Shown here one piece after another: positions 14,640 to 40,236 of a stretch of DNA of 64,000 bases. A program made the translations under genes and the position numbers. Origin of the DNA: an uncultured Methanoregula sp. (GTDB lineage: Archaea > Halobacteriota > Methanomicrobia > Methanomicrobiales > Methanospirillaceae). The DNA lies in the NCBI GenBank assembly GCA_964592875.1, contig CAZQGG010000009.1, positions 2,514 through 66,513 on the forward strand, read 5' to 3'. The notes under the pieces were generated by a model, which worked only from the letters and a program-made list of their open reading frames with translations, did no database searches and was not told where the DNA came from. Position 1 is the first letter of the stretch. Every line of letters begins with the position of its first letter.

Positions 14640-14849
14640 TCAACTGCCATCCTGCCGACGCCATTCATTCATAATGCTCAGCAGGATCGCATGCTGGCAT
14701 GCTGATTCACGTTGTATATCGTTCATCAGATCGACCCTCAGGTCCCCGGGAGACCGGAGTTGCCGGGATTTCTTCGTGATTCGTTCCCCGGACCCTTCGG
14801 ATGTTCCGGATACAGGTGTGGTTACCTCCGGTGTCCTGTTACCGGTCAT
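14640..14849 (-). CDS. Small hypothetical protein (69 aa), translationally coupled to the GtrA gene
   Basis: ATG at 14849 overlaps the GtrA TGA (ATGA); product MTGNRTPEVTT...LLSIMNEWRRQDGS. Confidence 0.55.
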   Translation of the reverse strand: MTGNRTPEVTTPVSGTSEGSGERITKKSRQLRSPGDLRVDLMNDIQRESACQHAILLSIMNEWRRQDGS

Positions 14850-15253
14850 GCGGCACCTGCCCGGAACGTGAACCTGCTCTGCCCGTAATAATTCCAGAAA
14901 AATGCACAGATAGTTGCAAGTACCTTTGCAGCCAGGTAGTTGAACGAGGCCAGCTCCACGAGAATCCAGATGATCGTGACATTCACCATCAGGCAACTGA
15001 GGGAGATTGCCGCAAATGTGGTGAACTGGGAGAGATAGTTCCGGGTCCGGTCATGGAACGTGAGGAGCTTGTTGAGAGTATAGCTGACCAGTATTCCGCA
15101 GCAGTACGAGACACCTGCAGCCGGGATATACCACATGTTCGCATATTCGCAGAGAGCGTACAACAACCCGATGTCGATGAGCGAGGATATGACGCCCACG
15201 AAAAAGAACCAGAGGAAATGTTCGCGGCAGAATGCAGCAAACCAGCCCGTCAT
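14846..15253 (-). CDS. GtrA-family protein (putative lipid-linked sugar flippase)
   Basis: FLWFFFVGVISSLIDIGLL, SYTLNKLLTF, AKVLAT...FFWNY...RFTF; AAGGAG just before ATG 15253. Confidence 0.9.
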   Translation of the reverse strand: MTGWFAAFCREHFLWFFFVGVISSLIDIGLLYALCEYANMWYIPAAGVSYCCGILVSYTLNKLLTFHDRTRNYLSQFTTFAAISLSCLMVNVTIIWILVELASFNYLAAKVLATICAFFWNYYGQSRFTFRAGAA

Positions 15254-15302
15254 CTCCTTTTCCCCAAACAATAGCCCGCTGATCCCAGACATCCGGTTAC
15301 TC

Positions 15303-17585
15303 CTAGTACCCGGCGCAGTCATACAGGCTGTTCTGGGAACGGGAATCCGAGCCTGTGGTGCCTGATAAACCAGAGATGTCACGAGGTATACCGGAAGAGG
15401 TCCGGTTCGTAGTTCCATCCACGGAGAGCACAGCAGCGCGGGTATCCCCGGAAATATTACCGGTGCTGCCCCCCCATTCAGAGGACGGGATCGCGGTGCA
15501 ATGATCCGCTACCCAGCTGAAGATCTCTGAGTTGCCGGAGTTTCCCCCACCACCCTGTGCACCCGAGAGATAGAAGTACCGGATCTTCCCGGCACTCACC
15601 AGACTTGCCAGGGATTCCGTGGAAAGAACCTGGTCGCTGCCGGCGAACCCGCCCAGTGCCATGACGGGTTTCCCCGTCTCGATGATCAGTCCGGCAGCAC
15701 TCATGCTGCTTGGTTCGGCAACAATCCAGGTTTCGTTTGTTGTATGGGAGAGGAGGTACGTTGCAAGACCGGAAGTACTTCCTTCAGATATACCTCCAGG
15801 CAGGGAATTCATGCCTCCATGTACGCCACTGCCACCCATGTCACCGCCCTGCCCCGATTGCTTCGGGCCGGCGGTCGGCAGGTTTCCCGACCCGTACATG
15901 AGGGGAGTACAGGCCCAGACGAATGGTGCAATGAAGAGGAGGGCAATGGCCCCGATCGCCACGACCTTCGTGATCGTACCCGTACCCGCGAGGTGTCTGG
16001 CTTTCAGGTATAGCAGCACGATAGTCAGGATCACGGCACCGCACCCGATAACAACGGTGAGTAACCCTGACCATTCAGCAGTGTAAAGCAGGATGATCAC
16101 CTGAACGATGCCGGTGACAATGATCGCTATCGGAAGGATCCAGCCTCTTATCCCCCCACCCCGGTACGCCTCGTACATTGCCACGGCACCGATCCCCACC
16201 AGCCCTGCAAGCGGGGGGGCGATGGTGGCAAGGTAGTAGGTGTGCCAGAACCCGGTGGTGAAACTGAAATAGGCAAGGCCGGGCAGGAGCCAGAGGCACA
16301 GTGCCATGACCGTCAGACCTCTCTCGCTGAAGAGTCCTACATCTTCCAGCCCTTTGAGCGAGAGTGCGGCAGGCCGCCTCCAGAGGGTAAGGAGTCCGAT
16401 CAGGGCAAAAGGAAGCAGCCAGCTGATCTGGGCTGCCAGCCCTTCGCCAAAGAGGCGGGTGATCCCAGGCGATCCGGTCTCGTCTCCCATCCCTCCTCCA
16501 CGTCCGGTACCGGATCCTGGTGCATTACCTGCGGCGGCACTGGATCCTCCCGGCATTCCTTCGGGAGCATTCCCCGAAGGCCCGAAAGCCATGGCGGCGT
16601 CCTGCCCCGTGCCGGGCGGCTGCATCATATCCGCACTGCTTCGGTCCATGCTGCGCCCGGCCGTACGGTTCTGCATGCCTCCCGACTCCAAGGAAAGACC
16701 ACTCTCGCCACCCGGTGGGGCATCTGCTCCCGACCCCGGTGAGCCTTGTGTAAATTCACCCGTACTCCCGCCCGGCCCGGTTGAATCGCTCTCCAGCCGG
16801 TGAATTCCATTGTAATTGACAATGAGGCCCAGGACCGTGTTGTCCCCGCTGCCGCCGATATAGGGGCGCTGGTCTGCGGGGATTGAGTCAACAACAACCG
16901 CCCATGAGAGGGAGACGGCAGCGAGCACGGCAATGGCAAGGACGATATGAAGAACCCGTTTTTTAAAGGGGATCTCCCGTGCCCCCAGCAGGTAGATTGC
17001 AAGAATGGCGGGAACCGCAATGAACGCCTGGATCATCTTGACATTGAACCCGATACCGATGAGGATCACGGCAAGCAGGAGACAAAAAAACGATGATTCC
17101 CGGGCGGCTTTCAGGGCCACCCAGACCGCGAGAAGGAGGACAAAGATGAGGATCCCGTCCATGGTGCCGTTGCGCGAGACCGCAACGAAGATCGGGGTCA
17201 CCGCCAGCGCCAGCGCGGATACAAGACCCGCGGGTTTCCCGAATGCCCGTGAGACGATCAGGTAGATGAGGGCCACCGAACCGACACCGGCGAGTGCCTG
17301 CGGGAGAACGAGCGACCAGCCCGAGAACCCGAAGAGTGCGGCACTCGCTGCCTGCACCCAGAGGCCGACCGGAGGCTTGTCAACCGTGATAAATCCTGCG
17401 GCATCGAAGGAGTTGAAGAAGAGGACTGCCGGGTTTGCAAGCATGCTCTTTACCGCAGCCGCATAGTAGGCATTCGAAAAACCCTGATTCCAGACATTCC
17501 AGAAGTTCAGAAATGCAGAAATGATGAGAATACCGGCAAGGAGGATCTCATACCGGTACTGTTTTAACCGGATTGTATCCATCAT
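15303..17585 (-). CDS. GT-C glycosyltransferase, family 39/ArnT-like (YkcB/YycA type)
   Basis: NAYYAAAVKSM, FFNSFDAAGFITVDKPP, SRNGTMD, GFNVKMIQA, YIGGSGDNTVLGLIVNYNGIHRL, HTYYLATIAPP, GKPVMALGGFAGSD; Gly/Ser/Met-rich loops. Confidence 0.92.
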   Translation of the reverse strand: MMDTIRLKQYRYEILLAGILIISAFLNFWNVWNQGFSNAYYAAAVKSMLANPAVLFFNSFDAAGFITVDKPPVGLWVQAASAALFGFSGWSLVLPQALAGVGSVALIYLIVSRAFGKPAGLVSALALAVTPIFVAVSRNGTMDGILIFVLLLAVWVALKAARESSFFCLLLAVILIGIGFNVKMIQAFIAVPAILAIYLLGAREIPFKKRVLHIVLAIAVLAAVSLSWAVVVDSIPADQRPYIGGSGDNTVLGLIVNYNGIHRLESDSTGPGGSTGEFTQGSPGSGADAPPGGESGLSLESGGMQNRTAGRSMDRSSADMMQPPGTGQDAAMAFGPSGNAPEGMPGGSSAAAGNAPGSGTGRGGGMGDETGSPGITRLFGEGLAAQISWLLPFALIGLLTLWRRPAALSLKGLEDVGLFSERGLTVMALCLWLLPGLAYFSFTTGFWHTYYLATIAPPLAGLVGIGAVAMYEAYRGGGIRGWILPIAIIVTGIVQVIILLYTAEWSGLLTVVIGCGAVILTIVLLYLKARHLAGTGTITKVVAIGAIALLFIAPFVWACTPLMYGSGNLPTAGPKQSGQGGDMGGSGVHGGMNSLPGGISEGSTSGLATYLLSHTTNETWIVAEPSSMSAAGLIIETGKPVMALGGFAGSDQVLSTESLASLVSAGKIRYFYLSGAQGGGGNSGNSEIFSWVADHCTAIPSSEWGGSTGNISGDTRAAVLSVDGTTNRTSSGIPRDISGLSGTTGSDSRSQNSLYDCAGY

Positions 17586-17794
17586 GCAAGGCGATCCTGC
17601 ACGGTATCGAGGAGGAGAATAAGTTCCCAGATCCGGATTCTTCCCGCGCCCGATTCATGGTTCCCGATATCAAGGAGACTGTTTTTGATCTCTTCAACCT
17701 CTGCAGAGGTGATGAGGTACCATGCAGGTTTCCGTTGTGGGGACTTTTCACCAATATTTTCCAAAGAAACGATCCTGCCCGATGCGGTGCTCAT
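17582..17794 (-). CDS. Small hypothetical protein (70 aa), first gene of the glycosyltransferase operon
   Basis: TGA overlaps the GT ATG (ATGA); amphipathic helical product; start placed at MSTASG. Confidence 0.6.
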   Translation of the reverse strand: MSTASGRIVSLENIGEKSPQRKPAWYLITSAEVEEIKNSLLDIGNHESGAGRIRIWELILLLDTVQDRLA

Positions 17795-17844: not shown

Positions 17845-17915
17845 TAATATATTGATGATACGGCACCGGTGAAAGGAACTACCGTGAGGGAGATATATTG
17901 AACCCGAAAGGATCA
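17845..17915 (-). promoter_or_regulatory. Shared promoter, copy 1: GGTTCAAT box plus TATA-like TCAATATATTA
   Basis: + strand ATTGAACC at 17897-17904 and ATTGA at 17851-17855, offset 46 bp; same geometry at 21450-21521 and 25643-25714. Confidence 0.7.
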
Positions 17916-18048
17916 TGAATTGGGGGTGCCCGCAGCAATCCCCCATCATTATAAAAAAAATACCAACCTATTTTATCCCACACATGGATACTATGAATAC
18001 CATACCATTCCCGTAACCACGAGGAATGTGTTCCGGGTGATGCACATT

Positions 18049-18816
18049 ATGTCCGACAAACAGACCGTTACCGTTTCAACCGATCCGGCATTCTTAAAAG
18101 AACTGTCTGAATACTTAGAGGTCCTCTCAAACCCGGTCCGGCTGAAGATCCTAAAAGTGATCGAGAAAGAGCCAAAGGAGATCAGCGAGATCGCATCCCG
18201 CATCGATACCAGTTATGCCAATACCAAGAAGCACATCGACCAGCTGGTTGTAATCGGTCTTGTGAAGAAGGAGGCTGGGTACGGCAGGGAGACCGTCAAA
18301 GGAATCCACCCGGTCTGGAAATTCTCCCTCGTTGACGGGGGTATGGAGACCCTGATACGCAACATCGGGGTCTTTTCGAGCATCAACATCCCCATGGGAT
18401 ACGGTGATATCCAGTCACGTATCGAACCGTTGAAAATGGCCGTGCTCGCCGACTCCGGCTCGCAGTACCCCGCCCTGCATCTGGTGGAAGGACCCGCAGC
18501 AGGCAGGACATTTTTGTTGAAGAAGGACCGGGTCAGCCTCGGGAGGATCGACCCGGACTTCCCCGCATCGGCAAAAGAGGGGGACATTGTCCTTCCGGTG
18601 GAATATGCCTCGGTGACCCGGATCACGAAACCCCACGCGGTGATCTTCAGGGCGGAGAAGGAATGGTTCATTGAAGACCGGGGAAGTTCAAGCGGCACGT
18701 ATGTGAATTCAACCCTCATCCCCCCCATGAAAAAGACACCCGTGAAAAATGGCGATATCGTGGATCTGGCCATCGGGGATAGTTCAGCACGATTCCTGTT
18801 TGTTGTACATGAGTGA
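18049..18816 (+). CDS. ArsR-like winged-helix transcription regulator with C-terminal FHA domain
   Basis: N-terminal LEVLSNPVRLKILKVI...EISEIA...HIDQLVVIGLV (wHTH); C-terminal VSLGR...SVTR...PHA...WFIEDRGSSSGTYVN...LKNGD-like (FHA). Confidence 0.88.
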   Translation: MSDKQTVTVSTDPAFLKELSEYLEVLSNPVRLKILKVIEKEPKEISEIASRIDTSYANTKKHIDQLVVIGLVKKEAGYGRETVKGIHPVWKFSLVDGGMETLIRNIGVFSSINIPMGYGDIQSRIEPLKMAVLADSGSQYPALHLVEGPAAGRTFLLKKDRVSLGRIDPDFPASAKEGDIVLPVEYASVTRITKPHAVIFRAEKEWFIEDRGSSSGTYVNSTLIPPMKKTPVKNGDIVDLAIGDSSARFLFVVHE

Positions 18817-20866
18817 CCGACAGATGGTGGACTACGGCGATCCGAAACCGGGTTTATTAAGCATGCACATGAGACCTGCCGTAGTCGCGACCATGTTTCT
18901 TCTCGCTCTCCTCTTCTTCGTTATCCTGCCGGTCTCGGCAACCGTCTACATGTACAACGGGACCGAAGGAACGATCCAGGACCTGATCAACAGTACCAGC
19001 ACGGGAGATTCCATATTCCTCCCAACGGGAATCTATCACGAGAACCTCATCATCGAACATGCTATTGTCTTCGGTGCGCAGGATACGAACAACCCCCCGG
19101 CGGTCGTCACGTCCGGTAACGGTGCCGGGATCATCCTTGCAGCCGATGGGATCACGCTCAACGGGTTGAACCTCTCCGGTACTGCCAGGACCGGGCTTCT
19201 CGTACAGTCCAATAACAACCGGATCAGTGATATCACGGTGCAGGGTTTCAGCAGGGGAATCGAGCTGAATAATGCCGCAGACAATATTTTTTCAGGGAAT
19301 ACCGTTACGAACAACAGTGTGGGGGTCACCGTGGATCGCTCTTCCCGTTCCAATACCTTCTTCTTAAACCGGTTCGACAACCCGGTGAATGTGGCCGGCC
19401 AGTCCGCGGACTCCCAGTGGTCTTCATCCAGGCAGGACTACTCCTATAACGGGAGCAGTTTTACCGGACCACTTGGCAATTTCTGGAGTGCCTATACCGG
19501 GACTGACAGTGATGACAACGGGGTCGGGGACTCCGCCTACCCGGTGCTGGCGGATGCACCCGCTGCCCAATCATCCGGGACAACAGAGACGGGAGACCGG
19601 GCGCCACTCATCCGGTATCCTGTTGCGTATTCCCTGCTCGTGAAGACGACGGTAAGTCCAATGAATTCCACAGGGGGCAGGAGTATGGACAGGCCCGACA
19701 ACCTGCCTGCCCTAGGGGAAAACCTGCAACAGCAGCCCTCGTCCCAGAACCCATCCATCTCAGTGACACCCGGGGGGCAGGGACCGGTATCCAGCGGCAT
19801 TCCATCATCCATCCCGGGAAGGACAACCCCGCCCCCGGGGGGCATGTTCCTCGCCATCCTGCTTGACTTCTGGTGGGTGATTCTTATCGTGGTGATCATA
19901 TCCGTGGTTGTCGGGGTATGGTTCGAACGGAGCCGCAGAAAGGCGCAGCCTGCCACCCATATCGAATATGTGGAGGCCAGTACCACCGCCAATGCAACCG
20001 TAGTGAAGAGACCGGGGACTGGTGGACTGGCTGCCGGGGACTGGAAGGATCAATCGTATTTTGCCGCTCACCTCCCATCGGCTCTGGAGAAGAAATACCC
20101 TGACGCGGAGTATATGGGAGAGGGGGGCGTTGGCCGGGTATTCAGGGCATGGGACACGGGGGAGCAGCGCCCCGTTGCCGTGAAGATCCCGATCCGGTTT
20201 GACGAGATAACAGGTTCGCAGTTCACGAAAGAACTCCATATCTGGCAGGGGCTTCACCACAAAAATATCGTTGAGATGTATGCGGCAAATGTCTTCCCCA
20301 TGCCCTATATCGAGATGGAATATATCGAATCATCCCTTGCCGTCAAGAAATTCCCTCTCGAAACAGAGAGGGCGGTAAAGATAATAACGGGTGTTGCAGA
20401 GGGGCTCCGGTATGCCCATGAACAGGGTATTGTTCACCGGGACATCAAACCGGAGAATATCCTCATCACCGCGGAAGACCTCCCGAAGATCACGGACTGG
20501 GGGCTTGCAAAGGCACTGACGGATACAAAACAGACCGGTCTCATCAGTTTCTCACTGAATTATGCTGCACCGGAGCAGTTAGCCCCGAATATCTATGGCG
20601 AGGCCGGGAAATGGACCGACATCTACCAGCTCGGGGTCCTCTTTTACGAGATGGTGACCGGGAGACTCCCTTTCACGGGTGCCGGCATGGGGGAGATCAC
20701 GCAGGCAATCCTCCACAACACGCCGCTGCCACCGGAACCCGCCGGGAGGAATGCGGAAGCAATTACAGCGATCATTACCAAATGCCTGCAGAAGAAACCG
20801 CAGGACCGGTATACCTCCGTTGCCGACATTCTTAACGACCTCCATCACCTGAAGCCTGAAGAATAA
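18809..20866 (+). CDS. Receptor-type Hanks Ser/Thr protein kinase with extracellular NosD/CASH beta-helix domain
   Basis: Signal peptide; GIYHENLII, NNIFSGN..TNN, GNFWSAYTG.D.DDNGVGDSAY; TM WWVILIVVIISVVVGVWF; GEGGVGRV, VAVK, HRDIKPENIL, TDWGLAK, YAAPEQ, DIYQLG. Start 18809 (overlaps FHA gene) or 18863. Confidence 0.95.
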   Translation: MSDRQMVDYGDPKPGLLSMHMRPAVVATMFLLALLFFVILPVSATVYMYNGTEGTIQDLINSTSTGDSIFLPTGIYHENLIIEHAIVFGAQDTNNPPAVVTSGNGAGIILAADGITLNGLNLSGTARTGLLVQSNNNRISDITVQGFSRGIELNNAADNIFSGNTVTNNSVGVTVDRSSRSNTFFLNRFDNPVNVAGQSADSQWSSSRQDYSYNGSSFTGPLGNFWSAYTGTDSDDNGVGDSAYPVLADAPAAQSSGTTETGDRAPLIRYPVAYSLLVKTTVSPMNSTGGRSMDRPDNLPALGENLQQQPSSQNPSISVTPGGQGPVSSGIPSSIPGRTTPPPGGMFLAILLDFWWVILIVVIISVVVGVWFERSRRKAQPATHIEYVEASTTANATVVKRPGTGGLAAGDWKDQSYFAAHLPSALEKKYPDAEYMGEGGVGRVFRAWDTGEQRPVAVKIPIRFDEITGSQFTKELHIWQGLHHKNIVEMYAANVFPMPYIEMEYIESSLAVKKFPLETERAVKIITGVAEGLRYAHEQGIVHRDIKPENILITAEDLPKITDWGLAKALTDTKQTGLISFSLNYAAPEQLAPNIYGEAGKWTDIYQLGVLFYEMVTGRLPFTGAGMGEITQAILHNTPLPPEPAGRNAEAITAIITKCLQKKPQDRYTSVADILNDLHHLKPEE

Positions 20867-21004: not shown

Positions 21005-21379
21005 TTATGTACTGCTTGGGGGGGTACCCGAGGGTTTCTCACCGGATGGTGCTGTGCCGTTACCCTGCATGCCACCCGGGGGAGTGCCCGAGGGGCGCGT
21101 ACCGTTCATCTCCATTCCCGCAGGTGGAGTGCCTGATGGCTGGGTACCGTTTGCCTGGAACCCTTCAGGATGTGTACCTGACGGTGTCACGGACTGTTCG
21201 GATGACCCGGTGGAGGCAGATGCCTGCGATGGCGTGTCCTGTGCCTGCACTGATGATGCAGGAGTCGATGCAGCAGATTGCGTGGAAGTACTTCCGGCAT
21301 CGGATGTGCAGCCGGCAACAAAAATTCCCGCAATGAGAATCACTGACGCGACTATTATGATACTGATACTTTTCTTCAT
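21005..21379 (-). CDS. Small Ser/Thr/Pro/Gly-rich lipoprotein with NGTxPSG repeats
   Basis: MKK + hydrophobic stretch + VAGC lipobox; three NGTxPSG units, each followed by a GTPP motif. Confidence 0.8.
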   Translation of the reverse strand: MKKSISIIIVASVILIAGIFVAGCTSDAGSTSTQSAASTPASSVQAQDTPSQASASTGSSEQSVTPSGTHPEGFQANGTQPSGTPPAGMEMNGTRPSGTPPGGMQGNGTAPSGEKPSGTPPSST

Positions 21380-21449: not shown

Positions 21450-21521
21450 ATATATATTCACCATATACAGCCAGTGAAATACTCGGCGGAGATGCGCAAT
21501 AATTGAACCAGCGGGTGTACA
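21450..21521 (-). promoter_or_regulatory. Shared promoter, copy 2
   Basis: + strand ATTGAACC at 21502-21509 and ATTCA at 21456-21460 (TGAATATATAT on - strand), offset 46 bp. Confidence 0.7.
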
Positions 21522-22294
21522 TAATCCGGCGCATTCTCCCGGGTGCCTGGATTAATAAAAAGTGCCTGCGCCGCTATCGGGGACTATCATTACCGTAAAA
21601 AAAGAGACTGACAGGAAACTGCGGATTGACCCGTTTCCTGCCGTGACATGTGCCGGGTATTGAGGGGGCGCTGTGGGCCCCACCCCGGTATTTCCGGCAC
21701 GGGATGAGATCATCAAAAACCCCGGTTGGTATGAGGGATATTGTTGTGCTGCTTTTTGCCTCATCGGGGTTTGTAGGTTGATGGATTGGATAGAATGTCC
21801 TTCTCGGGTTTTTGTACTTCTCCTGAATCCTTTTGCATCCTCATCTAGTCTGGCTGGAGACTATTATACGGGCCCATGGCATGACCATGTGTCCGGTTGC
21901 CCACAGGATACCAGTGACCTGGTGCCTTGCCCAAACCCCTCCTGTTCCAAGGGGAATGCAGATCCTGCAATGGGGTTGGCAAATCAGGTACTGCCACAGA
22001 GCAGATTACTCGATCTTTCAACCACCTCCCAGATCTGATGACTGCCCTCAAGGGTAATCATCCTGCATCACGATATCCGCCCCACCACTTATATTCGGCA
22101 CATGTACTGGGTGAAATATTGCACGATCACCGGGATACATTATACTGGCTGGTCAACATTATCACGGCAGGCCGTTTCCGTCGCAGAATTGAAGGGGGTA
22201 GATCAACCATGCTGGCATATCAGAAAAAAGATTCCGGGGATGGTTTATTATCCACGGGATTACGTGATCCGGTTTTTCGGGCAACCTTCCGGAG

Positions 22295-23530
22295 TTAGTC
22301 GCTCCTCAGCGCATCGATCGGGTCCATGTTCGATGCCTTCCATGCAGGGTAAAGCCCGGAGATCACACAGACCACCAGTCCCACGACCATTCCTGCGGGA
22401 ACGTAGATGATACTGGCCGGGAGGAAGAAGAACTCCGTGGTGCCCATCATCACATCCACGACAGAGTACCCGATGACAACGCTCATCAGTCCTCCTATCC
22501 CCGCCCCTATGATACCGAGAATGAACGCTTCGTAGAGGAACATCCGCCTCACCTCGCCGGTCTCCGTACCGATCGAGAGCAGGATACCGATCTCCTGAAT
22601 CCGCTCATTGACCGACATCATCATCACGTTGAAGATGCTGACGGCTGCAACGATCAGCGAGATCCCGCCGATCGCTAGGCAGAACAGTGTCAGGGTTTCG
22701 AGCGTTGACGAGATTGTATCAAGCTGCGAACTGGCATCGCTGATCCGGACTGCCGGTGTCTTCTCATCCGTATTGAGCTTGGCATCGATCGCCTCCTCGA
22801 TCTCCGTGATCATGTCGGTATCGTCAACGATCACGTTCACCTGATCGTAGACATCCTTACTGCCGTACTGGGCCACGTACCATTCCTTGGTGACCACGAT
22901 CCCGTTGTCGGTGCTCACGCTGTCTGCAACGGTGCCCCGCGTATCAATGATCCCGACCACCTTCACCGAAGCCCGGGATGCTGATGTGGAGCCGTCGGGA
23001 GGACCCTCTGATGCCGAACTGATCTTGATCTTGTCCCCGATCTTTACACCAAGGGATTCAGCAAGGGTATACCCGATGAGCGCTTCGTTGATACCCGCGA
23101 TATTGGTGCCGTTCCCGATGGTCAGAAACTCGGTCACATCATCCGGGTTCATCCCGTAGATCGTGCCCCGTGCCGGGACATTCCCGTACGTGAACTGCGT
23201 ACTGGACGAATAGATCGGGATCACCGTACCGTTCGTCCCCACGGCAGCTTTGATCTTGTTCAGCTGGGTCTTTTTGATGCCAGATTCTTCGGTTGAGGAT
23301 GACGATTGAGACCCGGGAGGTCCCATCCGGACGGCATCGGCAGTGATGACGATGGTGTTCGCGCTCGATGAAAGCTGGTCCTCGACCTGCAGGGACATGT
23401 TGGTCCCGAGCATCCCCATGCACGAGATGGCGACAACACCGATCACAATACCGATGGAGGCCAGGATCGAGCGCGTGAAGTTCAGTCTCACGCTCCGTAC
23501 CGAGAGCTGGAAGAAGATATCGCCAATCAT
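22295..23530 (-). CDS. ABC transporter permease (MacB/FtsX family)
   Basis: RSILASIGIVIGVVAI, MMMSVNERIQEIGILLSIG, SGLYPAWKASNMDPIDALR. Confidence 0.95.
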   Translation of the reverse strand: MIGDIFFQLSVRSVRLNFTRSILASIGIVIGVVAISCMGMLGTNMSLQVEDQLSSSANTIVITADAVRMGPPGSQSSSSTEESGIKKTQLNKIKAAVGTNGTVIPIYSSSTQFTYGNVPARGTIYGMNPDDVTEFLTIGNGTNIAGINEALIGYTLAESLGVKIGDKIKISSASEGPPDGSTSASRASVKVVGIIDTRGTVADSVSTDNGIVVTKEWYVAQYGSKDVYDQVNVIVDDTDMITEIEEAIDAKLNTDEKTPAVRISDASSQLDTISSTLETLTLFCLAIGGISLIVAAVSIFNVMMMSVNERIQEIGILLSIGTETGEVRRMFLYEAFILGIIGAGIGGLMSVVIGYSVVDVMMGTTEFFFLPASIIYVPAGMVVGLVVCVISGLYPAWKASNMDPIDALRSD

Positions 23531-24207
23531 GATTCCACGATCCTTCCGTCATCCAGATGTATCGTGCGCTGTGCATATTCTGCAACCTTCGGGTCGTGGG
23601 TGACAAGGATGACCGTCTTTCCTTCTTTTTGCAGGTTGCAGAGGATCTCCATGATCGCAAAACCAGTCTTGCGGTCAAGGTTGCCGGTCGGCTCATCGCA
23701 GAGGAGGATCTTCGGGTCGTTGACGAGAGCCCGGGCGATCGCGACCCGCTGCTGCTGGCCACCGGAGAGCTGGTTGGGACGGTGGAAGGCCATCTCCCGA
23801 TCGATTCCCACCGCATCGAGCAAGGCGGATGCCCGGCCGGTCGTATCGCGTTTCTTGTACTTCAGGATGAGCGGATACTCCACGTTCTCGTAGGCCGAGA
23901 GGAGGGGGATCAGATAGAACTTCTGGAAGATATACCCGATGGCATCGCGCCTGAGGTGTGTCCGCTCTAAATTGGTCATCTTTGCCACGTCTTTGCCATC
24001 GATATAGAGTTCCCCGGTCGTGGGGACATCGAGGATCCCCAGCTGGTTCATCATCGTTGATTTCCCGGAACCGGACGGTCCCATGATCGCAACGAAGTCG
24101 TTCTCCTTGATATCGAGAGAGACGTGGTTGAGCGCCGTGAAGTCCCCACTCTCGAGGTGGTAGGTCTTGGTGACATCCACCAGGCTGATAAGGGGGGTAT
24201 CGGTCAT
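23527..24207 (-). CDS. ABC transporter ATP-binding protein (LolD/MacB type)
   Basis: GPSGSGKST, LSGGQQQRVAIARAL, LCDEPTGNLD, VTHD; start MTDTPL. Confidence 0.96.
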   Translation of the reverse strand: MTDTPLISLVDVTKTYHLESGDFTALNHVSLDIKENDFVAIMGPSGSGKSTMMNQLGILDVPTTGELYIDGKDVAKMTNLERTHLRRDAIGYIFQKFYLIPLLSAYENVEYPLILKYKKRDTTGRASALLDAVGIDREMAFHRPNQLSGGQQQRVAIARALVNDPKILLCDEPTGNLDRKTGFAIMEILCNLQKEGKTVILVTHDPKVAEYAQRTIHLDDGRIVES

Positions 24208-24217
24208 GTTCGACCCC

Positions 24218-25549
24218 TCACTGCTTCTTGATCTTTGACATGATCCATTTCCGCTTGGTATACGCAACGGCGCCGACAATGATGAGGGCGAACATTGCGA
24301 TGACCGGGTAGAACGAACTGAGGCCACCCTTCGCGCTGGTGATGCTGGAGAGGACGCTGCTCGAAGATGACGACGATCCACCGGGTCCGCCGCTCATGTC
24401 CCCGCCGGGTCCGCCCGTACCGCTCGGGGCACCTGAGAAACTGCCGGAGGTCCTGGTGGAGCTGCCGGTCGTGCTGGCAGAAGGCATGCCCCCGGACTGG
24501 GAGTAGGTCGTCAGATCCACGGTCTTGGTCACCGAGTAGTCGGTACCGGCTGAGTCCTTCCAGTGGATGACCAGCGGGACTGAAGACAGGTCCGTGCAGG
24601 TGAAGGTGACCTCGAAACTGGACGAGTCATCGGAGGCGAGGCTGCCCACGGCATATTCCGGATAGGTACCCGTTCCCTTGGCGGGCAGACCCACCGAGAC
24701 CACAACACCGTTTGCATCCGTGACACCCGTATTGGTGATATCCCCGCTCAGGTCATAGGTAGAACCTGATGAGGTGAGTGCCATGTTATTGATGGTCGGT
24801 ACTGCGGCGTCCTTGGCATTGCCGGGGGTGATCGGCAGGTTTACTGATAATTCACGTTTGACATCCCCGTTCTGGTAGTTGATGTTGAACGTGATATTGG
24901 TCGCTTTGTGGGGTGTGACGGTGAAGGGGACCTCGGTCACACTGTTTGCCGGAATTTCACTGATGAAGGTCACCGAAGGGGTGATATCAGTGCCGCTGTC
25001 TGCGGTCGTGATATAGATACTCTTGAGTGCCCCGTCACGCGGGTTGATCAGGCTTAAGTTGACGGAGGCTGCGCTGTCAACGGTAAAGGTCTCTGGCCGT
25101 GAGGAGATGGCAGCGTGCAGGTCCTCCGAATCCACTTCGAAGGTGATCGGGTAATGGATATTCTTGCCGTCTTTTGTCTCTATGGAGAAGAGGGAGAAGT
25201 AATTGCCATCCATCCCGTTCACGGTTACATCGAATGTATAGGTGATCGAATTCGAGGACCCGAGATAGGAGAGGGTCTGCCACTTGTCCTGGTTCACGAT
25301 ACTGATCTCGTTATTGGCCGCAAGAAGATTCGGGTGGGTGACACCTACCGAGGTGTTGCCATCATTGGTCAGGGTTACACTCACTGATCCTGTCTCATAA
25401 GGATAGAATGTCTCAGGGTTCATGGTGACCGAGGATACATAGACATAGGAGGAGCCTCCATCATTCCGGTTCGTATCGGCACTGACTGGGACTACCGATA
25501 CCATCAGTACCAGCAGGATACAGCTGGTTAACAAATAGTTTAGTTTCAT
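24218..25549 (-). CDS. COG1361-like S-layer/Ig-fold secreted protein with C-terminal TM anchor
   Basis: Signal peptide, SGDITNTGVTDANGVVVS, YAVGSLASDDSSSFEVTF, Gly/Ser-rich linker, TM + KRK. Confidence 0.8.
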   Translation of the reverse strand: MKLNYLLTSCILLVLMVSVVPVSADTNRNDGGSSYVYVSSVTMNPETFYPYETGSVSVTLTNDGNTSVGVTHPNLLAANNEISIVNQDKWQTLSYLGSSNSITYTFDVTVNGMDGNYFSLFSIETKDGKNIHYPITFEVDSEDLHAAISSRPETFTVDSAASVNLSLINPRDGALKSIYITTADSGTDITPSVTFISEIPANSVTEVPFTVTPHKATNITFNINYQNGDVKRELSVNLPITPGNAKDAAVPTINNMALTSSGSTYDLSGDITNTGVTDANGVVVSVGLPAKGTGTYPEYAVGSLASDDSSSFEVTFTCTDLSSVPLVIHWKDSAGTDYSVTKTVDLTTYSQSGGMPSASTTGSSTRTSGSFSGAPSGTGGPGGDMSGGPGGSSSSSSSVLSSITSAKGGLSSFYPVIAMFALIIVGAVAYTKRKWIMSKIKKQ

Positions 25550-25642: not shown

Positions 25643-25714
25643 CTTATATTGACATCACGGCAGGGGGCCAATTATTGTCAGAAACCGGGATTAATTGAAC
25701 CGGGTGGTTGAACA
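25643..25714 (-). promoter_or_regulatory. Shared promoter, copy 3
   Basis: + strand ATTGAACC at 25694-25701 and ATTGA at 25648-25652 (TCAATATAAG on - strand), offset 46 bp. Confidence 0.7.
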
Positions 25715-25801
25715 TATCATCCGGGCCAACACCGGGGGCGCCCGGTCAGATCGCGGGCTTTAAGCATTCACCCACGAGAACCTGAATAACGGGATTGTGC
25801 T

Positions 25802-26281
25802 ATGGCGTTTTTCTGCCAGCAGTGCGGGGAGTGCTGCAGCTCCATGGGGGATGTAATCGGCATCCGCGAACAGGCCGGCCCCGCCGAGTTTGTGATCTGG
25901 TTCAAGATCACCGGTGAGGAGCGAAGGGTCTGGATCGATCCCGACAAGCTGGGTCTCTTCTTCAACCAGGATATCCACCAGCACCGGCCCATGGCCTGCC
26001 CGTTCTTAAGAGAACGATCCACGGGTTCTGCGATCTGCACGGTCCACTACACCCGGCCCGATCTCTGCCGGCAGTATGGCTGTTTCCGGATCCTGGTGCT
26101 TGGGCCCGATGGCGCACGGCTCGGCCGGGTGGTCGAGGGCTCCCGGTATTTCACCACCATGGACCCGGGCCTCAAGGCCCTCTGGGACCGGGAGATTGGG
26201 GCGAAAGAGATCGCGGATGATCAGTGGGAAGAGTTCGTGGAGCAGGTCCTGGTGCGGGCCGGGTACCGGGTCATACGATAA
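25802..26281 (+). CDS. YkgJ-family cysteine cluster protein
   Basis: FFCQQCGECC...CPFL...CTVHYTRPDLCRQYGC. Confidence 0.88.
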   Translation: MAFFCQQCGECCSSMGDVIGIREQAGPAEFVIWFKITGEERRVWIDPDKLGLFFNQDIHQHRPMACPFLRERSTGSAICTVHYTRPDLCRQYGCFRILVLGPDGARLGRVVEGSRYFTTMDPGLKALWDREIGAKEIADDQWEEFVEQVLVRAGYRVIR

Positions 26282-38568: not shown

Positions 38569-40236
38569 TTACCGGTCCCTCCGGAACTTCAAAAAGATCA
38601 CGTGATAGATCGCATAGAACCCGCAGAGCACGGCCGCGGTGTACCCGGCAATCGCCAGCCACGTGATCTGGGGCGGCAGCGTGATCGCGGAGACCTGCAG
38701 TACGAGCGACGACCCGACCACGAGCGAGGCAACCACGATCCCCATCATCATCTTGTCGGCCGCCGAATCCAGCGCCATCGTCAGTTTCTGGAGATCGTTC
38801 TCCACGATCTCCAGCTTGAAGGACCCGGTCGAGAGCCGGCGCAGCATCAGGTTGAGATTCCGCGGCATATCTAAGAGGGCATCCGCACCCTCAAGGAGTG
38901 CCATCGAAGCCCGCTTGACATAGCCCGCGGAGAACGTGTTGGTATCCGCGAGTTTGGTTAAGTACGGCGTCACTTCCTCGCCGAAATTGAACTTCGGATC
39001 GAGCCGGACACCAACATCGAGCACCATCATGAAGACTTTTAAGAGCAGCATCAGGTTCAGCGGCACCTTCAGGTTATAGCGCCGCATCGAGTCCGTGAGC
39101 TCGGAGACCACGAGCCCGAAATCCATCTGCGCAACCCCGCCTCCGCCTCCCGAGAAGTCGTGCATCATGACGTACAGGTCGTCCCTGAGCGCCTCGCGAT
39201 CCTCTTCCTTGATCTCGATGCCAAAGCCCTCGAGCGAGCGGATCATCAGCTCGATGTTGTCCGTGGAGAGCGCAAAGAGCAGGTTGATGAAGTTCTGGCG
39301 CTTCTCAGGCCTGAGGATGCCCACGATGCCAAAGTCTAAAAAGACGATGTCGCCTTCTTTTGTCACGAGCAGGTTGCCCGGGTGCGGGTCGCCGTGGAAG
39401 AACCCGTCCTCGAAGATCATCTTGAGATACGCGTGGAACCCGCGGATACCAATCGCGTGCGGTTCGACCCCCATCTCCGTGATCGCTTCGACCGCATCGA
39501 TCCGGACCCCCTCGACAAATTCCATGACCAGGAAGTGGGGGGTCGTGTACTCCCAGTAGATCTTCGGGAAGCGGATGCCCGGGACGTTCTGGAAGTTTCT
39601 CGCCATGCGGTCAGCGTTCCGGGCTTCACGGGTGAAGTCGAGCTCTTTTAGGATCTGGTGGGCGAAATCGTCCACCATGCCGGCCGGGTTGTAGATCCGG
39701 CTCTCGGGAAACATCGTCTCGATGCGCTCGGCCATGGACTGGAGGATGCCGATATCCAGCTCGATGATCTCAGGAATGCCCGGGCGCTGGATCTTGAGGG
39801 CAACCTTGGTCCCGTCCTTGAGGTAGGCCCGGTGCACCTGGCCGATCGATGCGGCTGCAACGGGCGTCTCCTCGATATCGCAGATGAAATCTTCCCAGTT
39901 CGGACAGTTCTCTTCGATCACCGCCATGACTTCTGAGAAGGGGACAGGTTTGGCATGGTCCTGTAATTTTTTGAGCTGCTCGATCATCTCGGGCGGCAAA
40001 AGTTCGGTCCTTGTACTCGCGATCTGCCCGAACTTCACAAAGGTGGGCCCGAGTTCCTCCATCGCGAGCCGTATCCGTTCGTAGGTGCTGGCACCTTCCG
40101 CGGCCTGACCAGAGCCGGGAAGTTTGAACCGTACCGATCCGGGAAAGAGCTTCTCAAGGCCTATACTCAATCCATACTTGCTCAGGATGTCCAGAATCTG
40201 AGCGTACCGCACGATACGGGTGACCATGGGGTACAT
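38569..40236 (-). CDS. ABC1/AarF/UbiB-family atypical kinase
   Basis: LGPTFVKFGQ, AAASIGQVHRA, VALKIQRP, FFHGDPHPGN, DFGIVG. Confidence 0.95.
   Translation of the reverse strand: MYPMVTRIVRYAQILDILSKYGLSIGLEKLFPGSVRFKLPGSGQAAEGASTYERIRLAMEELGPTFVKFGQIASTRTELLPPEMIEQLKKLQDHAKPVPFSEVMAVIEENCPNWEDFICDIEETPVAAASIGQVHRAYLKDGTKVALKIQRPGIPEIIELDIGILQSMAERIETMFPESRIYNPAGMVDDFAHQILKELDFTREARNADRMARNFQNVPGIRFPKIYWEYTTPHFLVMEFVEGVRIDAVEAITEMGVEPHAIGIRGFHAYLKMIFEDGFFHGDPHPGNLLVTKEGDIVFLDFGIVGILRPEKRQNFINLLFALSTDNIELMIRSLEGFGIEIKEEDREALRDDLYVMMHDFSGGGGGVAQMDFGLVVSELTDSMRRYNLKVPLNLMLLLKVFMMVLDVGVRLDPKFNFGEEVTPYLTKLADTNTFSAGYVKRASMALLEGADALLDMPRNLNLMLRRLSTGSFKLEIVENDLQKLTMALDSAADKMMMGIVVASLVVGSSLVLQVSAITLPPQITWLAIAGYTAAVLCGFYAIYHVIFLKFRRDR

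Follow-up and report, generated by a model that had tools for sequence, protein, structure and literature searches.

A Receptor Ser/Thr Kinase and a wHTH-FHA Regulator as a Candidate Phosphothreonine Signaling Pair of Methanomicrobiales

Introduction

Two overlapping genes of an uncultured Methanoregula sp. raise the question of whether a methanogen can carry a signal from its surface to its promoters by means of phosphothreonine (pThr). They are located in a 64,000-nt stretch of contig CAZQGG010000009.1 (hereafter the window, meaning the whole stretch that was analyzed) and encode a winged helix-turn-helix (wHTH) protein with an FHA domain, followed by a receptor Ser/Thr kinase (Table 1). An earlier note, made from the letters of this DNA, had compared the pair with the mycobacterial PknH-EmbR system and had connected it with a divergent operon for a GT-C glycosyltransferase. 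Our analysis leads us to regard the pair as probably a lineage-specific pThr sensor and regulator of the Methanomicrobiales, with a biochemistry predicted from sequence, that would control envelope glycoprotein genes. The evidence comes from the strict pairing of the two genes, from the residues conserved in both proteins and from a promoter site shared by three transcription units around them.

The Gene Pair and Its Distribution

The ATG of the kinase gene (18809) and the stop codon of the regulator gene (18814-18816) are both found inside ATGAGTGA, which confirms the 8-nt overlap reported before. An in-frame ATG downstream (MHMRPAVV) offers an alternative kinase start that would leave a short gap to the regulator gene, and in relatives the kinase similarity begins anywhere from an overlap with the end of the FHA gene to ~150 nt past it. 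Gene neighborhoods were studied in 80 loci from species-representative genomes, divided into orthologous loci (the Methanoregula group orthologous to the window pair) and other-group loci (the remaining groups), and a locus was evaluable when it had enough DNA downstream. In 63/63 evaluable loci (33/33 orthologous, 30/30 other-group) the DNA directly downstream encodes, in the same orientation, a kinase catalytic domain. Among 151 Methanomicrobiales genomes, both genes are present in 105, the kinase alone in four, the FHA gene alone in two and neither in 40; the wHTH-FHA protein thus occurs in 107 genomes and 28 of 33 genera, with 1-4 copies per genome. The genome studied here has exactly two FHA domains, both in wHTH-FHA genes with a gene for a NosD-type ectodomain, transmembrane (TM) helix and kinase next to them, and the second, paralogous pair (G000:C2:423677-426632; L001 9668-12632) shows 45 and 50% identity to the pair of the window. 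Because of this adjacency, the co-occurrence over 151 genomes and the joint duplication, the wHTH-FHA protein and the kinase are supported as a conserved functional unit. A correlation of r = 0.95 between the pairwise identities of FHA proteins and kinases was dropped as evidence, since shared species phylogeny accounts for it. One exception to the pairing was observed in a Methanoregula genome (G076), which has four family kinases, one of them a 1116-aa open frame, and no wHTH-FHA gene.

The family appears to be confined almost entirely to one order. We retrieved 242 homologues of the regulator, and those that carry a name are assigned to Methanoregula, Methanoregulaceae or Methanomicrobiales. 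In a phylum sample of 401 genomes, matches outside the Methanomicrobiales were found in one genome, on a small contig, and a profile search of 1.84 billion representative proteins gave 56 matches at E ≤ 1e-30, fragments counted, the weaker ones being mostly FHA domains in other architectures. Neither a tRNA in the window nor a compositional anomaly at the locus of the pair was found, so a mobile island is not suggested. A distant full-length wHTH-FHA relative outside the order was seen in Methanobrevibacter sp. DSM 116169 (CP166990.1 1666194-1678985; L084), where it is divergent to an operon that encodes another FHA protein together with a cytoplasmic Pkinase and a phosphatase of the Metallophos type; no AACC-N4-GGTT site was found in its AT-rich intergenic region. 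As regards phosphatases, two PP2C genes are present in the genome studied here (G000:C6:188619-190037 and G000:C1:266655-268186), each adjoining another Pkinase-like gene, which brings the genome to a minimum of four kinase-type genes alongside the two PP2Cs. In the window, ~39301-39558 (ORF, open reading frame, 38569-40236, minus strand) also gave a weak Pkinase-like match.

Analysis of the Kinase

The kinase protein matches Pfam Pkinase (156.7 bits) and NosD (77.4 bits). Together with hydropathy and the translation, these matches bear out the layout proposed earlier, in which a signal peptide, a NosD beta-helix, a Ser/Pro linker, a TM helix and a Hanks kinase succeed one another. All elements by which a Hanks kinase is recognized were found in the sequence, namely the Gly loop (GEGGVG, 437-442), the beta3 Lys (VAVK, 456-459), the alphaC Glu, HRDxKxxN (HRDIKPEN, 543-550), the DFG-type Asp (DWG, 563-565) and APE (587-589). 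The description of an intact RD-type kinase stands as well for the family, as the Gly loop, the VAVK Lys, HRDxKPxN, APE (65/65) and the unusual DWG in place of DFG (65/65) are conserved across 65 kinases. On the juxtamembrane side, orthologous kinases share the motif R-N-x-T-[VIL]-V-K, with 'T.V' in at least 90%, and similar T-V/R-V motifs are found in the other groups. The Thr of this motif (T397 in the window kinase) is a candidate docking pThr, a role suggested by the sequence.

The ectodomain is not to be read as an orthologue of NosD, since NCBIfam NosD_copper_fam (TIGR04247) gives 73.6 bits against a cut-off of 300 and only the parallel beta-helix repeat domain is common. Across the groups the ectodomain is a NosD beta-helix, a PEGA domain or a short S/T/P-rich segment, always behind a signal peptide; judged by these architectures, the family is one of surface sensors with interchangeable sensing parts. 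The sensing of surface glycan by the beta-helix, put forward in the earlier note, can only be conjectured and is weakened since NosD is not a constant of the family.

Analysis of the Regulator

Three Pfam models match the regulator above their cut-offs: FHA at residues 165-240 (5.7e-12; 46.3 bits vs. 20.7) and, both at residues 26-74, HTH_20 (1.1e-8; 35.3 bits vs. 27) and HTH_5/ArsR (6.7e-6; 26.3 bits vs. 22). Membership of the metalloregulator subfamily is not indicated, as NCBIfam HTH_metalloreg reaches 29.5 bits against a cut-off of 55. The AlphaFold 2 (AF2) model, with a mean pLDDT of 79, consists of a disordered tail (residues 1-9, pLDDT < 50), the wHTH (13-94), two helices with a low-confidence linker and the FHA sandwich (142-252). 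Foldseek with this model gave a probability of 1.00 to many solved FHA domains and target-normalized TM-scores up to 0.87; the top matches are DgcB, GarA and OdhI (6hc0/6hc1, 6i2p, 4qcj, 2kb3), followed by EmbR (2ff4, E = 5e-6) and ArnA (5a8i, E = 1.8e-5).

The motif positions of the FHA domain were assigned by alignment to the solved FHA domain 1uht and to 65 family members. Five residues (G165, R166, H196, S213 and N220) do not vary. Position 193 carries Thr in 35 members and Ser in the other 30, position 194 is K/R and position 214 is S/T; the phosphate-contacting set is intact despite the absence of the canonical Asn, which is weighed below. The same alignment explains 'VTR instead of VSR', an earlier reading of this domain, as a misalignment, because the canonical Ser-x-x-His corresponds to T193-K-P-H196 (ITKPH). 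The retention of GR (165-166) and of His196, also claimed, was correct. At the N-terminus, Thr6 is invariant (65/65), with V/I/L at +1 and L/I/V at +3. The motif pT-x-x-[ILV] is a typical FHA ligand, and the Thr6 tail fits it, provided that it is phosphorylated as we would predict. In the recognition helix, T54, S55, Y56, N58, T59, K60, K61 and H62 are invariant among 35 sequences with 42-86% identity to the regulator of the window.

Promoter Sites Around the Pair

The box GGTTCAAT occurs eight times in the window vs. 2.4 expected. Minus-strand copies at 17904, 21509 and 25701 are each located exactly 43 nt upstream of AATATA, and the three resulting promoters precede the GT-C/GtrA operon, a small lipoprotein gene and the COG1361/ABC operon, respectively. 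Of the 121 boxes in the genome, only six are followed by a TATA at a distance of 41-45 nt, and three of these composites flank the pair. The link of the pair to surface genes, drawn earlier from proximity, is strengthened by this common site at three units, which supports it at the level of sequence. The composite of box and TATA is conserved in orthologous loci of many Methanoregula metagenome-assembled genomes. Elsewhere in Methanoregula, an exact copy of the composite is found no more than ~10 kb from the orthologous FHA gene, and genomes without that orthologue mostly lack it. The site-1 box, exact or with one mismatch, is found ~170-220 nt before the FHA start in ~24 orthologous loci, and site 2 is conserved in ~16, where it falls between kinase and FtsX. 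The genes behind the box in these loci encode S/T/P-rich MNGTxPSGTPP lipoproteins, PKD-type surface proteins, COG1361 proteins and the GT-C operon. A fourth composite in the genome (C1:365960; G000:C1:365948-370200; L082 7949-12889) consists of a palindrome and a TATA and precedes the gene of a secreted protein (~237-244 aa) that is rich in Gly, Ser and Pro and has many N-x-T sequons; downstream of this gene are a TetR gene and a second COG1361-FtsX-ABC cluster.

The box constitutes one half of a 20-bp palindrome, RTWKAACC-N4-GGTTMWAY, with a degenerate inverted copy upstream of it; the perfect form is ATTGAACCACATGGTTCAAT. Near-perfect palindromes are found in other-group loci from other genera, e.g., ATTGAACC-ACAT-GGTTCAAT in L045. 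Counting as strict those sites with the AACC-N4-GGTT core and at least 7/8 flank matches to RTWK/MWAY, we obtained 19 in 511 kb of other-group loci (0.37 per 10 kb) vs. eight in the 2.87-Mb genome (0.028 per 10 kb), which is a ~13-fold difference. Site 3 is one of these eight, and two of the eight are beside the two pairs; at the paralogous pair, two tandem AACC-N4-GGTT palindromes are located at -117 and -138 nt of the FHA start. In five other-group loci from other Methanoregulaceae lineages (L062, L066, L076, L077, L080) the palindrome is found 97-101 nt before the FHA start. As the binder of the palindrome, the best candidate is the wHTH-FHA protein, because it is the only DNA-binding protein common to all site-enriched loci and has an invariant recognition helix. 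By general knowledge of archaeal promoters, a box placed ~43 nt ahead of TATA points to activation and not to occlusion. The idea that one factor at site 1 controls both divergent promoters was dropped, as the distance from the site to the FHA promoter varies among loci.

Some further sites were observed. The palindrome also occurs just past the kinase gene and before the next gene; in L052, L053, L055, L057 and L073 (Methanolinea, Methanoregulaceae) it is ~0.5-1.3 kb after the kinase, before a response-regulator-like gene with a receiver domain, which hints at cross-talk between pThr and His-Asp signaling. Twice, in the window (25694-26281) and at G000:C2:473816, it is flanked on one side by a gene for a secreted or COG1361-type protein and on the other by a divergent CxxCxxCC (PF03692-like) gene, the products beginning MAFFCQQCGECC... 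and MTEFVCNGCGKCC...; this recurrence suggests that small Cys-rich CxxCxxCC proteins belong to the same regulon. At G000:C1:491875 (L083 ~3876) a box-TATA composite follows a PAN-like AAA ATPase gene and has no ORF downstream on that strand, so it may be a small-RNA promoter or a chance site.

Proposed Mechanism and Alternative Explanations

From the observed domains, the conserved catalytic and phosphate-contacting residues, the pairing, the phyletic co-occurrence and the conserved clustering of the cis-element, we infer the biochemical steps, the identity of the site-binding protein, the direction of regulation and the kind of signal as follows. The Ser/Thr kinase would cross the membrane once and expose its beta-helix ectodomain at the surface, and the wHTH-FHA protein would be its cognate cytoplasmic regulator. 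A change in the envelope would alter kinase activity and lead to autophosphorylation, for which the activation loop and juxtamembrane Thr397 are candidates. The FHA domain would then dock on the pThr of the kinase and the regulator would be phosphorylated, most plausibly at the invariant Thr6. Contacts between pThr and FHA, in cis or between subunits, could change the occupancy of RTWKAACC-N4-GGTTMWAY by a wHTH dimer, the GGTTCAAT box being the better-conserved half of the bound palindrome. At three promoters near the pair the site is in an activator-like position, 43 nt before TATA; the putative output would comprise the GT-C/GtrA operon, the sequon-rich lipoprotein and the COG1361/ABC-exporter operon, and would result in remodeling of envelope glycoproteins. 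A wider version may also be considered, although we offer it tentatively and at somewhat less than even confidence: an order-wide, private pThr system, similar in its logic to two-component systems, in which each modular receptor kinase is hard-wired to its own wHTH-FHA factor, with a GarA-style switch in the Thr tail, a family-wide palindrome (ATTGAACC-N4-GGTTCAAT) and targets in envelope glycoproteins and glycosylation.

Several observations weigh against control of envelope glycoprotein genes by such a pThr pathway. Since the ectodomain varies between groups, one ligand cannot be assumed for the whole family. The canonical Asn of the FHA domain is missing, position 215 being Gly in 57, Ser in eight and Asn in none of the 65 members (the departure from GSxNGT pointed out earlier is thus a family trait), and binding of pThr peptides may be reduced or changed. 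In synteny, GT-C adjoins in only 17/30 orthologous Methanoregula loci and in 0/32 outside this group. The other-group pairs, like the paralogous one, are in unrelated neighborhoods, with the ABC operon in 0/23 and GtrA adjacent in none. Within the orthologous group GtrA is present in 23/30 and the COG1361/ABC operon in 25/26, which makes the latter a steadier neighbor than GT-C. The expected synteny of the pair with surface genes in other genomes hence holds inside one genus-level orthologue group and fails outside it. As for the sites, those of the orthologous group have one good half, with degenerate left halves (GTACACC, ATGATCC) and a spacing of N4 or N5; strict sites occur in only 14/41 other-group loci; and the near-central place that site 1 holds between the divergent TATA boxes is peculiar to the window. 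An unbiased search for enriched 7-mers upstream of other-group FHA genes returned mostly AT-rich promoter words and did not place the palindrome on top (TTGAATC reached only p = 1e-5), the palindrome having been found only by inspection.

Part of this evidence would suit a genuine kinase/FHA module whose GGTTCAAT palindrome belongs to another, unlinked factor, with true targets elsewhere, such as its own promoter, and with the surface genes nearby by accident or in a shared regulon. In addition to the unrelated neighborhoods and the scarcity of strict sites, the eight strict sites of the genome are scattered, several of them far from both pairs, and a possible family-wide link to N-glycosylation was rejected, as AglB (STT3), 4 kb upstream of the paralogous pair, is not conserved there and its neighbors recur in no other fetched locus. 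The FHA-kinase operon, moreover, has its own promoter and leader (AAAAATACCAAC[CT]TATTTTATC ... ATGATAGTATGGTAAAGCATAC), strongly conserved, distinct from the palindrome and kept in loci that have no GT-C operon. However, an invariant recognition helix is paired with an invariant half-site, no other DNA-binding protein is shared by the loci with site enrichment, palindromes precede the FHA start in five other Methanoregulaceae loci and at the paralogue, and half of the genomic box-TATA composites flank the pair; an unlinked factor is therefore unlikely in our view. It is also improbable that the FHA domain acts independently of phosphorylation, as a constitutive module for protein-protein contacts or dimerization, while the kinase has its main substrates elsewhere, for example among the proteins of envelope biogenesis. 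Binding of partners by FHA surfaces does not always require phosphate, as GarA shows with metabolic enzymes, and the loss of Asn throughout the family would agree with such a role, but the phosphate contacts R166, S/T193, K/R194, S213 and S/T214 are retained, the pairing with the kinase is strict, and the invariant Thr6 tail and the juxtamembrane Thr are plausible pThr ligands. Finally, the kinase was matched by defense models (PADLOC PD-T4-6, 2.6e-56, and mad6, 1e-53; NCBIfam MAD6, 5.5e-40), from which an anti-phage kinase of the PD-T4-6 or MADS-like type, rather than an envelope sensor, might be concluded. These matches are limited to the generic catalytic domain (residues 425-683), and NCBIfam MAD6, with 137 bits, falls far short of its cut-off of 460; the kinase has a secreted ectodomain and a TM helix, its gene belongs to the chromosomal core across the order in stable synteny, mobile or patchy inheritance of the pair was not seen, and no defense-island neighbors are next to it. 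We consequently rejected a defense function as barely credible and retain the pThr sensor/regulator of envelope glycoprotein genes as the favored explanation.

Comparison with Known Systems

PknH and EmbR of M. tuberculosis are encoded adjacently, and the parallel drawn in the earlier note holds for the adjacent receptor kinase and for the order of DNA-binding domain and FHA domain. As in the window, a single-pass receptor Hanks kinase is combined with a regulator that has an N-terminal wHTH and a C-terminal FHA domain. In the mycobacterial system this domain serves for docking on the kinase and for phosphorylation by it, and the output includes the envelope GT-C glycosyltransferases embCAB (PMC2877116); for the window pair, such docking and the regulation of GT-C are predicted. 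The suggested EmbR-like link to the divergent GT-C operon is in line with the shared promoter site before that operon, but is limited by its partial synteny. EmbR is a SARP (OmpR-type wHTH plus BTAD), whereas the window wHTH is ArsR-like and has no BTAD or Trans_reg_C match in Pfam and NCBIfam, so the regulator is not a member of that family. The PknH sensor fold likewise contrasts with the NosD-type beta-helix ectodomain, and the window pair is set in archaeal transcription machinery, with a site upstream of TATA and a GT-C link in only part of one genus. The likeness is convergent, not one of whole-system homology.

The earlier note knew of no archaeal regulon under a receptor kinase and an FHA transcription factor. 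This has to be qualified for the Sulfolobales, where FHA regulators under Hanks-type kinases are known, ST0829/ST1565 and ArnA/ArnB with ArnC/ArnD (PMC5007285, PMC5300886, PMC10470591), and stands for the present architecture and lineage, which are unstudied in the literature searched. ArnA/ArnB and ST0829 resemble the window system as archaeal FHA regulators with Hanks kinases, a cell-surface structure (the archaellum) as target and an FHA domain that binds phosphorylated partners (PMC5007285, PMC5300886, PMC12852372, PMC10470591). ArnA, however, combines a zinc-finger with FHA, has the vWA partner ArnB and no wHTH, and is not encoded beside its kinases, which are not beta-helix receptors. 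The Arn system belongs to the Thermoproteota and has other targets, and neither a zinc-finger nor a vWA domain was found by Pfam in the window protein and its neighbors. In GarA, OdhI and Bdellovibrio DgcB the FHA domain binds the protein's own phosphorylated N-terminal tail, by which these proteins are switched and to which the disordered tail of our family, with an invariant Thr followed by hydrophobic residues, is comparable. Their outputs are enzymatic (2-oxoglutarate dehydrogenase inhibition, diguanylate cyclase) and not DNA-binding, and phosphorylation of the tail is here predicted. Mycobacterial EspM is also a transcription factor with FHA and HTH domains (PMC11005418), but its FHA is N-terminal with two HTH C-terminal, and this bacterial protein regulates ESX-1 and has no receptor kinase encoded next to it. 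A 'signature Ser/Thr kinase' named for the Methanomicrobiales (PMC2686161) was considered as a description of the window kinase and discarded, since the term refers to anti-sigma-type regulators.

Features of the Window

The coordinates of the pair, its domains, the operator-like sites and the neighboring genes are presented in Table 1. The small lipoprotein-like protein is likely to be heavily glycosylated at the surface, judging from its sequence, and is a candidate glycoprotein under site 2. Its orthologues with MNGTxPSGTPP repeats are found behind the same promoter in L005, L009, L012, L016, L027 and L031. In the region 21600-22150, a second promoter-like element (...TATTTCACC...CATG...GAATATAAG; ~22090-22150, minus strand) resembles the site-2 promoter without the GGTTCAAT box and is followed by ~500 nt without a convincing ORF, perhaps a non-coding RNA or the remains of a gene that has decayed. 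CofC and CofE are also encoded in the window.

Table 1. Features of the kinase-regulator locus and its surroundings (positions in the window).
Feature	Position	Strand	Remarks
wHTH-FHA regulator gene	18049-18816	+	255 aa; Pfam FHA, HTH_20 and HTH_5 above curated cut-offs
Disordered N-terminal tail	18049-18084	+	Thr6 codon 18064-18066; T-[VIL]-x-[LIV] motif; candidate phospho-acceptor and FHA ligand
ArsR-like wHTH	18124-18270	+	HTH_20, residues 26-74
Recognition helix TSYANTKKH	18208-18234	+	within the ArsR-like wHTH
FHA domain, residues 142-252	18472-18804	+	AF2 strands 142-252; Foldseek
Receptor Ser/Thr kinase gene	18809-20866	+	685 aa; Pfam Pkinase 9.7e-46, NosD 1.4e-21
N-terminal signal peptide or anchor, residues 22-44 (...LPVSA)	18872-18940	+	hydropathy windows >1.8 starting at residues 20-31
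NosD-type right-handed beta-helix ectodomain	19046-19501	+	Pfam NosD 80-231, Beta_helix 46-188
Ser/Pro/Thr-rich extracellular linker	19655-19843	+	read from translation
Single TM helix, residues 346-372	19844-19924	+	hydropathy windows >1.8 starting at residues 343-358
Juxtamembrane N-A-T-V-V-K, conserved T397	19991-20008	+	candidate autophosphorylation and FHA-docking site
Hanks-type catalytic domain	20105-20833	+	Pkinase match, residues 433-675
FHA-kinase operon promoter and leader	17949-18010	+	AAAAATACCAACCTATTTTATC ... ATGATAGTATG-like; alignment of 30 upstream regions
Operator-like site 1	17897-17916	-	ATTGAACC-N5-GGATCAT on + strand; ahead of GT-C operon; TATA AATATATT at 17846-17853
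Operator-like site 2	21502-21521	-	43 nt upstream of TATA, ahead of small lipoprotein gene
Operator-like site 3	25694-25713	-	near-palindrome ATTGAACC-GGGT-GGTTGAAC; between COG1361/ABC operon (-) and CxxCxxCC gene (+)
Divergent operon	14640-17794	-	70-aa ORF, GT-C, GtrA, 69-aa ORF
70-aa ORF	17582-17794	-	first of divergent operon
GT-C PMT_2/YkcB glycosyltransferase	15303-17585	-	Pfam PMT_2 8.8e-35, YkcB_C 2.7e-28
GtrA	14846-15418	-	Pfam GtrA 1.9e-26
69-aa ORF	14640-14849	-	last of divergent operon
Small lipoprotein-like S/T/P-rich protein (MKKSISIIIVASVILIAGIFVAGC...)	21005-21379	-	unannotated, easily missed; lipobox signal ...IAGIFVAGC; four N-G-T sequons
COG1361/CARDB surface protein, ABC ATPase, MacB/FtsX permease operon	22295-25549	-	Pfam CARDB, ABC_tran, MacB_PCD, FtsX

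Significance

Archaeal signaling by Ser/Thr phosphorylation has been worked out almost solely in the Sulfolobales. No description of the present module was found in the literature searched on FHA, kinases and Methanomicrobiales, and no methanogen pathway from a surface sensor to a promoter is described there. The module offers a compact candidate, consisting of a sensor kinase, a DNA-binding FHA protein, a predicted 20-bp operator and a small predicted regulon of envelope glycoproteins, glycosyltransferases and exporters, and each proposed step is open to test with recombinant proteins and with cultured Methanoregula, Methanoculleus and Methanospirillum. Most members of the Methanomicrobiales, an order of major methane producers in peat, sediments and digesters, carry the module. 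Should the order-wide version of the proposal be true, it would give methanogens their first defined sensor-to-promoter pThr pathway. In the module, the logic of PknH-EmbR would have been reinvented independently, with an archaeal wHTH acting on a promoter of the TATA/TFB type.

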